Under the pieces are notes generated by a model, which was not told the DNA's origin, did not search any database, and saw only the letters and a list, made by a program, of their open reading frames with translations. Positions 3,468 to 3,922 of a stretch of DNA of 64,000 bases are shown here, in pieces. The stretch is from an uncultured Lachnospiraceae bacterium (GTDB lineage: Bacteria > Bacillota > Clostridia > Lachnospirales > Lachnospiraceae): NCBI GenBank assembly GCA_910578605.1, contig CAJTQG010000007.1, forward strand, positions 1,577 to 65,576. Reading direction: 5' to 3'. The position numbers and the translations under genes are program-made. The first letter of the stretch is position 1; each line of letters begins with the position of its first letter.

Positions 3468-3592
3468 ACGCAAAAAGGCTGCAAGATTTTAACATCCTGC
3501 AGCCGAACTATCATTGTAATATAGATTATATCCTTACTTTAGACTTCTAGCTTTGCGTCCCCACATTTCCATAGGTTTGCCCCTTATTATTC
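3468..3592 (-). promoter_or_regulatory. c-di-GMP-I (GEMM) riboswitch-like leader, copy 1, with intrinsic terminator; proximal to the RHS gene
   Basis: Minus-strand sequence AAUAAGGGGCAAACCUAUGGAAAUGUGGGGACGCAAAGCUAGAAGUCUAAAG… matches GEMM-I hallmarks (GGCAAACC, GAAA-capped hairpin, GGGACGCAAAGC). It ends in the hairpin GGCUGCAGGAUGUUAAAAUCUUGCAGCC plus UUUUU, about 85 nt upstream of the RHS ATG. Confidence 0.65.
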
Positions 3593-3637
3593 TCTTGTAT
3601 TCTATTTATCTATACTCTATATTTTTATCCTTTGTTC

Positions 3638-3667
3638 TGCTTCATAATAGCTTAATATACAAATTTT
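3638..3667 (-). promoter_or_regulatory. sigma-A-like promoter (TTGACA-17-TATTAT) between the two tandem riboswitch copies
   Basis: The minus strand reads TTGACAaaatttgtatattaagcTATTATg, a near-consensus -35/-10 pair with a 17 bp spacer. Confidence 0.45.
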
Positions 3668-3781
3668 GTCAATAAAAAGTCAACATACACAAGGGAACCT
3701 GTAACTATTCAGCCTTCGGCTTCATAGCTACAAATTCGGGGCGACATTTTAAGTTTTGCTGCACAATACGAGCTTCCAAAT

Positions 3782-3908
3782 ACAAAAAAGCTGCAAGACT
3801 TTTACATCCTGCAGCCAAACTATCATAATAATATTACATATTGCCTTATATATTATTTTAGACTCCTAGCTTTGCGCCCTCGCATTTTCATAGGTTTGCC
3901 CCTTATCA
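3782..3908 (-). promoter_or_regulatory. c-di-GMP-I (GEMM) riboswitch-like element, copy 2 (distal), with intrinsic terminator
   Basis: Minus strand: AUAAGGGGCAAACCUAUGAAAAUGCGAGGGCGCAAAGCUAGGAGUCUAAAAUA…GGCUGCAGGAUGUAAAAGUCUUGCAGC UUUUUU. It is homologous to copy 1. It begins ~15 nt after the stop of the upstream gene, and a TATAAT -10 box lies at 3917-3922. Confidence 0.6.
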
Positions 3909-3922
3909 AAATATATATTATA

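Follow-up and report, generated by a model that had tools for sequence, protein, structure and literature searches.

Why should a gene for a secreted rearrangement hotspot (RHS) protein be preceded by two riboswitches of the same class, and would their ligand turn the gene on or off? These questions are raised by a 64,000-nucleotide (nt) stretch of contig CAJTQG010000007.1 from an uncultured Lachnospiraceae bacterium (assembly GCA_910578605.1), hereafter the window, in which the minus strand carries an RHS/YD-repeat protein gene with two elements resembling riboswitches for cyclic di-GMP (c-di-GMP) in its leader. Both elements belong to the class-I c-di-GMP (c-di-GMP-I, GEMM-I) family, each overlaps with an intrinsic terminator of its own, and a single such unit is conserved in front of orthologous RHS genes in two other species. 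The explanation that we favour, and as a whole consider likely, is that the pair of riboswitches controls a secreted, WapA-like RHS gene and that c-di-GMP turns this gene ON.

The riboswitch units in the RHS leader

The whole window was scanned with cmscan against Rfam 15 at gathering thresholds, which gave four matches in all. Three of these, all on the minus strand, are to the c-di-GMP-I family (RF01051; gathering score of 35 bits; model length of 87 positions), and each is full-length (model positions 1–87 of 87). The proximal copy (RS2) and the distal copy (RS1) lie in the RHS leader, as aptamer–terminator units at 3591–3472 and 3910–3783, respectively, on one strand and upstream of the ATG at 3387; the third copy (RS3) is described below. 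The features of the locus are listed here in the order in which they are read from the minus strand.

3923–4969, minus strand: co-directional upstream gene, an open reading frame (ORF) of 348 aa, Glu/Lys-rich, with no Pfam or NCBIfam match
3917–3946, minus strand: P1, promoter-like site (TTGGCT-18-TATAAT) within the final codons of the upstream gene, with 10 of 12 matches
3807–3910, minus strand: RS1, distal c-di-GMP-I aptamer, a diverged duplicate (RF01051, 48.5 bits, E-value 2e-6)
3783–3816, minus strand: T1, intrinsic terminator of RS1, with an 11-bp stem (GGCUGCAGGAU...GUCUUGCAGCU) and U6, the 5′ arm being the 3′ end of the aptamer
3644–3672, minus strand: P2, candidate promoter (TTGACA-17-TATTAT) between the two riboswitch units, with 11 of 12 consensus matches
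3495–3591, minus strand: RS2, proximal c-di-GMP-I aptamer of canonical form (RF01051, 70.5 bits, E-value 8.5e-12)
3472–3504, minus strand: T2, intrinsic terminator of RS2, with an 11-bp stem (GGCUGCAGGAU...AUCUUGCAGCC) and U5 (hairpin of −18.7 kcal/mol)
1–3387, minus strand: RHS/YD-repeat protein gene, which runs off the start of the window (1129 of 1244 codons in the window)

An initial annotation, made from the letters alone, had proposed two minus-strand class-I aptamers, an intrinsic terminator for each and a near-consensus promoter between them. All three proposals are borne out: both aptamers score above the gathering score, a terminator scan places 11-bp hairpins at 3816–3789 (followed by TTTTTT) and 3504–3477 (followed by TTTTTG), and P2 has a conserved counterpart before the single riboswitch of an orthologous gene. 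Terminator-like sites number 3 in the region, compared to 0.4 ± 0.6 in shuffled sequences.

In the cmscan alignments, RS1, RS2, and RS3 have the equivalents of G20, A47, and C92 of the Vc2 riboswitch, whose anatomy and numbering were checked against the literature (PMC11705072); each of the three has an unpaired G ahead of the GC in GGCAAAC, a GCAAAG, and a GC after the second hairpin. A G rather than an A at position 20 separates c-di-GMP sensors from sensors of cyclic GMP-AMP (cGAMP). We rejected the cGAMP-sensing GEMM-Ib variant because G is retained at the position-20 equivalent in all copies, and Rfam clan competition likewise retained c-di-GMP-I over the variant families. A mobile repeat or miniature inverted-repeat transposable element was also rejected, because the three copies are full riboswitch units located before genes and their similarity ends at the unit borders. 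A MAFFT alignment of four aptamers placed RS3 out of register; hence, the Rfam model was used and no custom covariance model was built. Judged by their sequences, RS1 and RS2 are true class-I c-di-GMP riboswitches whose expression platforms are transcription terminators, and they are predicted to bind c-di-GMP.

RS2 combines a GAAA tetraloop with a UCUAA/AAUGA receptor and a GACGCAAAG core; together, RS2 and RS3 have the GAAA loop plus a UCUAA/(A/U)AUGA or UAGGA receptor. The GAAA-capped helix described in the initial annotation is therefore present in RS2 and missing from RS1, which has AAAA instead. The same annotation needs correction with respect to GGGACGCAAAGC, which it had assigned to the distal copy and had taken for the tetraloop receptor: RS1 reads GGGCGCAAAGC, the segment belongs to the junction and ligand pocket, and the receptor is the UCUAA...UAUGA of the second hairpin.

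Overlap of aptamer and terminator

The 3′ end of each aptamer doubles as the 5′ arm, 11 nt long, of the terminator in the same unit. According to our own mapping to Vc2 numbering, which is supported by PMC11705072, the arm consists of the closing strand of the second hairpin (87–90), position 91 with C92, and the 3′ strand of P1a (93–97); in T2, it spans the 3′ strand of P3, the C92 equivalent, and the bases just past it. Because the 5′ arm is built from aptamer nucleotides, the ligand-bound aptamer and the full terminator should be mutually exclusive. The unconstrained minimum free energy (MFE) fold of the RS2 leader (−30.5 kcal/mol) includes the full terminator, and the fold in which the aptamer is enforced (−25.5 kcal/mol) leaves a 7-bp hairpin located 4 nt from the U-tract. 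This design recurs among related leaders: in 19 of 20 unique leaders, drawn from the window, the orthologues, and 19 metagenome loci, the terminator hairpin extends from a point no more than 2 nt from the GGYUGCA of the aptamer to a U-run, and the distal stem sequences of these terminators vary freely from leader to leader.

An experimentally studied counterpart of this overlap is Bc4 of Bacillus thuringiensis, in which the terminator overlaps with part of P3, the C of the binding site, and the 3′ strand of P1, and for which reporters show that c-di-GMP acts as an ON signal (PMC4759541). Since the overlap design matches that of the experimentally ON-type Bc3-5 riboswitches, c-di-GMP probably switches the RHS gene ON. 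Without c-di-GMP, the terminators would fold, and transcripts would end short of the start codon by ∼85 nt (T2) or ∼395 nt (T1). Once c-di-GMP is bound, the aptamer would sequester the 5′ arm of the terminator, and RNA polymerase would continue into the RHS gene, whose ATG lies, with its ribosome-binding site (GGAGG, 7 nt before the ATG), 85 nt past the proximal module.

Conservation of the units

We identified twelve homologues of the RHS protein and compared the contigs surrounding them (loci are designated below by L numbers). In five other assemblies of the same species, the leader is 99 per cent identical. The species also includes the assemblies GCA_948550315.1 and GCA_948742865.1. Within the species, both aptamers are invariant except for one loop base of RS2, RS1 being identical in the five other assemblies, and the 3′ arm of T1 differs at four positions in other strains, in which an 11-bp hairpin still forms (−15.8 kcal/mol).

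Another species, represented by L006, L115, and L116, has an RHS orthologue of 58 per cent identity, and there a GEMM-I riboswitch (52–57 bits) with an overlapping terminator lies upstream of the gene. A TTGACA-17-TATAAT site precedes this single riboswitch in L006 and L115, in a place equivalent to that of P2. In L115 and L116, the intergenic region is complete (537 nt, up to a divergent ABC-transporter gene), and no second riboswitch was found in that region even at E ≤ 1. Alignment of the window's inter-unit spacer to the upstream region of L006 revealed no real similarity. A more distant orthologue (34 per cent identity) in L016, a metagenome-assembled genome of Lachnospiraceae, also has a GEMM-I riboswitch (40.3 bits) and a terminator upstream. 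The P2–RS2–T2 module is, by this comparison, the conserved and apparently ancestral control module of the RHS gene.

When metagenome contigs were scanned with a pattern for riboswitches of this subtype, 19 loci were obtained, all of which match RF01051 (56–75 bits). The genes downstream of these riboswitches mostly encode a 152-aa protein and in no case an RHS protein, and none of the 19 loci has a second GEMM-I copy. A regular-expression screen for GEMM-I near 80 distant RHS loci missed the divergent L016 copy that cmscan detected, and its negatives for L036–L095, many of which lack the gene start, are weak. The link between the riboswitch and RHS genes is thus recurrent but restricted to one sub-lineage, and the doublet is specific to one species.

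The distal unit

The RS1–T1 and RS2–T2 cassettes are ∼85 per cent identical, with the similarity confined within the unit borders; the repeat period is 319 nt and the spacer between the units is 190 nt. RS1–T1 is a species-specific duplicate of the aptamer–terminator cassette, located just behind the co-directional upstream gene. A consensus scan detected no strong terminator between the stop codon of that gene and RS1; consequently, transcripts of the upstream gene should run directly into RS1. The transcription start predicted from P1, near 3910, coincides with the beginning of the RS1 match, and sites like P1 are frequent in this AT-rich DNA. A TATAAT box at this place had been reported as overlapping the stop of the upstream gene; the site itself is confirmed (3946–3917), yet it abuts the TAG codon at 3925–3923 without overlap.

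RS1–T1 most likely gates read-through toward the RHS gene, because the single unit of the other species goes with a divergent upstream gene, and the additional unit here sits exactly where a co-directional gene ends. This regulatory role of RS1 agrees with the proposal of the initial annotation, in which read-through is gated by the first unit and the second unit controls its own transcript, a division that fits the single riboswitch and divergent upstream gene of L115 and L116. RS1–T1 would act as the terminator of the upstream gene, and read-through toward the RHS gene would depend on c-di-GMP too: transcripts arriving from upstream would face two gates, and transcripts from P2, presumed to be an active promoter as P1 may also be, would face one.

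RS1 differs from RS2 in its second hairpin by two transitions that preserve pairing and by one double change, G-C to A-U, that is compensatory; in its first hairpin, there are two mismatches, the loop has A for G, and the junction has G for A. The resulting AAAA cap might still present GAAA through a register shift, and the receptor and the equivalents of C44 and G83 are intact. The AAAA loop recurs in L006, L096, and L111, and the GGC junction in L109, L111, L112, and L113; these RS1-type features are found in other gene-proximal riboswitches of 56–73 bits. Because the loop and the junction recur in other riboswitches of the lineage, only the mismatches of RS1 look damaging.

Alternative explanations

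Several observations weigh against the explanation that we favour. No riboswitch was found before the RHS relatives in L007 (60 per cent identity), L024, L010, L012, L013, and L014 or at 19 more distant RHS loci; in L007, the RHS gene is located behind an ABC-transporter operon. Instead of being polymorphic, the C-terminal domain of the RHS protein is conserved over eight homologues. Neither visual inspection nor constrained folding revealed a convincing P1a helix in RS1, RS2, or RS3, and the modelled ligand-bound fold is incomplete to that extent; a weak AAGGG/CCUUU pairing is not claimed as P1a, as it would consume G20 itself. The authors of a review caution against extrapolating the direction of a switch from one species to another (PMC6366702), and McKee 2018 gives no account of expression-platform architecture. 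Finally, RS1 scores 22 bits below RS2, and its first hairpin is predicted to be unstable (+0.9 kcal/mol, versus −2.7 kcal/mol for RS2), so that RS1 may bind c-di-GMP weakly or not at all.

The weakness of RS1 is the core of an account in which only RS2 is functional and RS1 is a decaying, non-binding duplicate, whose hairpin is kept by selection as the constitutive terminator of the upstream gene. Along with the lower score (48.5 versus 70.5 bits), the two mismatches and instability of the first hairpin, the loss of the canonical GAAA loop, and the A-to-G junction change, this account can draw on an MFE fold of RS1 that lacks the aptamer, on the absence of the tandem from the orthologous locus of 58 per cent identity and from all 19 related metagenome leaders, and on the fact that the paired state is demonstrably maintained between strains in the terminator and not in the aptamer. 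Yet RS1 is 13 bits over the gathering score, its ligand-contacting positions and C44–G83 equivalents are all intact, its second hairpin carries the compensatory and pair-preserving changes, and the AAAA loop and GGC junction occur together in the gene-proximal riboswitch of L111 (56 bits). We therefore lean somewhat toward RS1 still being able to bind the ligand and regard the account of a non-binding relic as plausible, if not the one that we would choose. If instead the two aptamers are non-redundant, with differing affinities for c-di-GMP or a shifted ligand preference, they could form a two-threshold circuit together with the internal promoter. Moderate c-di-GMP would then open RS2 for P2 transcripts, and only high c-di-GMP would also open RS1, joining the 348-aa gene and the RHS–immunity cluster in one operon; we consider this elaboration improbable. 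We give equally little credence to a classical tandem, in which both units sit on one 5′ untranslated region (UTR) transcribed from P1 or from the upstream gene, produce a steeper, more digital response, and enclose an inter-unit promoter that is a chance match. Same-ligand c-di-GMP-I tandems with separate terminators are indeed common and more digital (PMC9481103; PMC4759541), and this AT-rich region contains many promoter-like (sigma-70-like) matches (7 versus 2.8 ± 1.9 expected, which is only a mild enrichment). P2, however, is the best promoter match of the region; an equally good TTGACA-17-TATAAT precedes the single riboswitch of L006 and L115, where no upstream unit exists; and the 190-nt spacer is far above what a tandem needs, the period being ∼160 nt in Bc3-5 and 319 nt here.

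The direction of switching could also be the reverse, with c-di-GMP promoting termination at the same elements, so that the RHS protein would be made at low c-di-GMP in motile, planktonic cells and shut off in sessile ones. All seven class-I riboswitches that function in Clostridioides difficile are OFF switches (PMC6366702; PMC11477304), and the fold enforced by the aptamer keeps the 7-bp remnant hairpin beside a short outer helix, which may allow some termination in the bound state. What argues against the OFF direction is the overlap itself, since a bound aptamer that holds the 3′ strand of P3, the C92 equivalent, and the following bases excludes the full terminator; in addition, the leader shows no separate segment that could pair with the terminator as an anti-terminator, and the identical layout of Bc3-5 is experimentally ON (PMC4759541). 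We consider OFF switches unlikely and retain the reading in which c-di-GMP turns the RHS gene ON.

The RHS gene and its neighbours

The initial annotation had identified the regulated gene as an RHS/YD gene, in agreement with the domain matches of its product. The N-terminus has a signal-peptide-like (Sec) segment, judged by eye, and is followed by a DUF7305-like region, TSP3_bac repeats, and an RHS_repeat match (38.3 bits). The full-length protein P0001 (1244 aa), 98 per cent identical to the RHS protein of the window, matches TIGR03696 (Rhs_assc_core; 70.3 bits, cut-off 32.5) and YD_repeat_2x (49.2 bits), and its RHS core ends in DPVNQVDPNG, a DPxG motif, at residue 1014. A fold search relates the 221-aa C-terminal domain, which has an invariant His/Cys pair (His71/Cys108), to a caspase/CHAT/DUF4347-like fold. 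The fold search alone was informative: sequence searches of Pfam, NCBIfam, and PDB yielded no significant match to this domain, to the ORFs that may encode immunity proteins, or to the upstream gene, and an exact-sequence look-up of the 348-aa upstream protein matched no contig. We infer that the RHS protein is WapA-like and a putative toxin.

In L001 (9758–15735), from the same species, the riboswitch-controlled RHS gene is followed by two paralogous small ORFs of 159 and 165 aa and, beyond them, by genes for an 80-aa PP-binding carrier and an AMP-binding/CapK_C enzyme of 406 aa, and then by a further RHS gene that has no riboswitch. The same pair of carrier and adenylating-enzyme genes also precedes the RHS homologue P0008 in L014 (4429–9564), which suggests that the pair is a conserved accessory module of this RHS subfamily, perhaps for acylation. 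In L010, a group II intron (D1–D4 and D5–D6 RNA matches and an ORF with RVT_1 and GIIM domains) and an AgrB-like gene, together at 2471–4241, lie just upstream of the RHS homologue P0005, which has no riboswitch.

Turnover of c-di-GMP and other structured RNAs

The window encodes two response regulators that combine a REC domain with an HD-GYP (HD_5) domain (26623–27684 and 29306–30397). They belong to a stretch of the minus strand (20211–30397) in which a chemotaxis-like cluster, composed by gene size and order of a methyl-accepting chemotaxis protein and CheW-like, CheA-like, CheY, CheB, and CheR genes, is followed by a PAS histidine kinase and these two regulators. The two proteins are probably c-di-GMP phosphodiesterases wired to a Che-type pathway. 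At the orthologous RHS locus of the other species, a gene with dCache_1 and HD-GYP domains, encoding a sensor-linked c-di-GMP phosphodiesterase, lies two genes downstream of the RHS gene (L115, 8379–10085; L006, 4830–6536). Given these HD-GYP genes in the window and beside the orthologous RHS locus, turnover of c-di-GMP is present in these organisms.

The initial annotation had suggested an RF01051 search of a second region besides the leader, and minus-strand matches were obtained in both. The match in the second region is RS3, whose unit has the same design as those in the leader.

50875–50963, minus strand: RS3, c-di-GMP-I aptamer (RF01051, 61.9 bits, E-value 1e-9)
50849–51017, minus strand: RS3 unit, with a promoter-like TTGACA-17-TAACAT at 51017–50989 and a 12-bp terminator at 50884–50855 followed by U6

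RS3 lies upstream of a gene for a secreted protein (50683–49205, minus strand) with two CBM_2 modules and an uncharacterized C-terminal half, and a homologous pair of leader and gene is found in L111, from a woodrat cecum metagenome. The fourth Rfam match in the window is a full-length TwoAYGGAY RNA (RF01731, 97.7 bits; 34527–34694, plus strand), a member of a family of unknown function. It lies in the intergenic region of two divergent genes, one for an RtcB RNA ligase (33192–34433, minus strand) and one for a WYL-domain protein (35015–36376, plus strand), a neighbourhood that may serve as a lead to the function of the family.

Comparison with known systems

Novelty at this locus appears to lie in the class of the target gene only; the riboswitch, the doubled layout, and the architecture are already known, and no new RNA class, regulatory principle, or mechanism is put forward. 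In agreement with the initial annotation, which had called c-di-GMP control of an RHS toxin undescribed, we found no paper in the open-access literature that ties a c-di-GMP riboswitch to an RHS/YD-repeat protein or a polymorphic toxin. If the ON logic holds, a commensal of the gut Clostridia would couple the production of a secreted RHS effector to the second messenger of a sessile, crowded lifestyle directly, without a protein regulator, and the regulon of c-di-GMP riboswitches (motility, pili, adhesins, and proteases) would gain interbacterial or host-directed toxins in Gram-positive bacteria. Under the two-threshold reading, c-di-GMP would be a direct RNA-level trigger of contact-dependent antagonism in Gram-positive gut commensals. 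The locus offers a simple, testable system, with one leader, one ligand, and one read-out for the deployment of an RHS protein in the gut, and the comparison of the one-unit and two-unit species illustrates how duplication of a riboswitch–terminator cassette can shield a toxin gene against read-through.

Bacillus subtilis WapA, like other Gram-positive RHS/YD proteins, is a contact-dependent toxin, as Koskiniemi et al. reportedly described in PNAS in 2013. Regulation of WapA by a riboswitch or by c-di-GMP is not known. The RHS protein of the window resembles WapA in its Sec-signal N-terminus, its YD/RHS shell, its core ending in DPxG, its C-terminal effector domain, and the small downstream ORFs, which are candidate immunity genes. 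It differs in the C-terminal domain, which has a caspase-like Cys-protease fold kept in the eight homologues, whereas this domain is polymorphic in the WapA type.

Like the window elements, the class-I riboswitches of C. difficile, such as Cd1/flgB and zmpI, control termination in a gut member of the Clostridia and act on surface, secreted, and virulence-related targets (PMC6366702; PMC11477304). These examples are uniformly OFF and include no RHS target, in contrast to the window, whose layout predicts ON and whose target is an RHS gene. In a C. difficile prophage, a second, riboswitch-independent promoter lies downstream of the riboswitch (PMC11477304).

A tandem of c-di-GMP-I riboswitches is, as such, not unusual, and a triple tandem has already been characterized (PMC9481103; PMC4759541). 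Riboswitches of this class are enriched in tandem arrangements (PMC12452182), and the catalogue of Sherlock et al. 2022 (PMC9481103) gives 347 doublets and 12 triplets, which makes them the commonest same-class tandems. Each catalogued doublet likewise places two full riboswitches of one class in series, both with an expression platform of their own; the doublet of the window is not conserved beyond one species.

A close known relative in design is the Bc3-5 triple tandem in the 5′ UTR of cspABCDE in B. thuringiensis CT-43 (PMC4759541). The window differs from it in having two units rather than three, a period of ∼319 rather than ∼160 nt, a strong promoter-like site between the units, a distal unit directly behind the stop codon of another gene, and an RHS target. 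Both systems share highly similar, repeated class-I aptamers, each with its own terminator, the 5′ arm of which is made of part of P3, the ligand-contacting C, and the strand that follows, and in both, which come from Gram-positive bacteria, the downstream genes encode cell-surface or secreted proteins.

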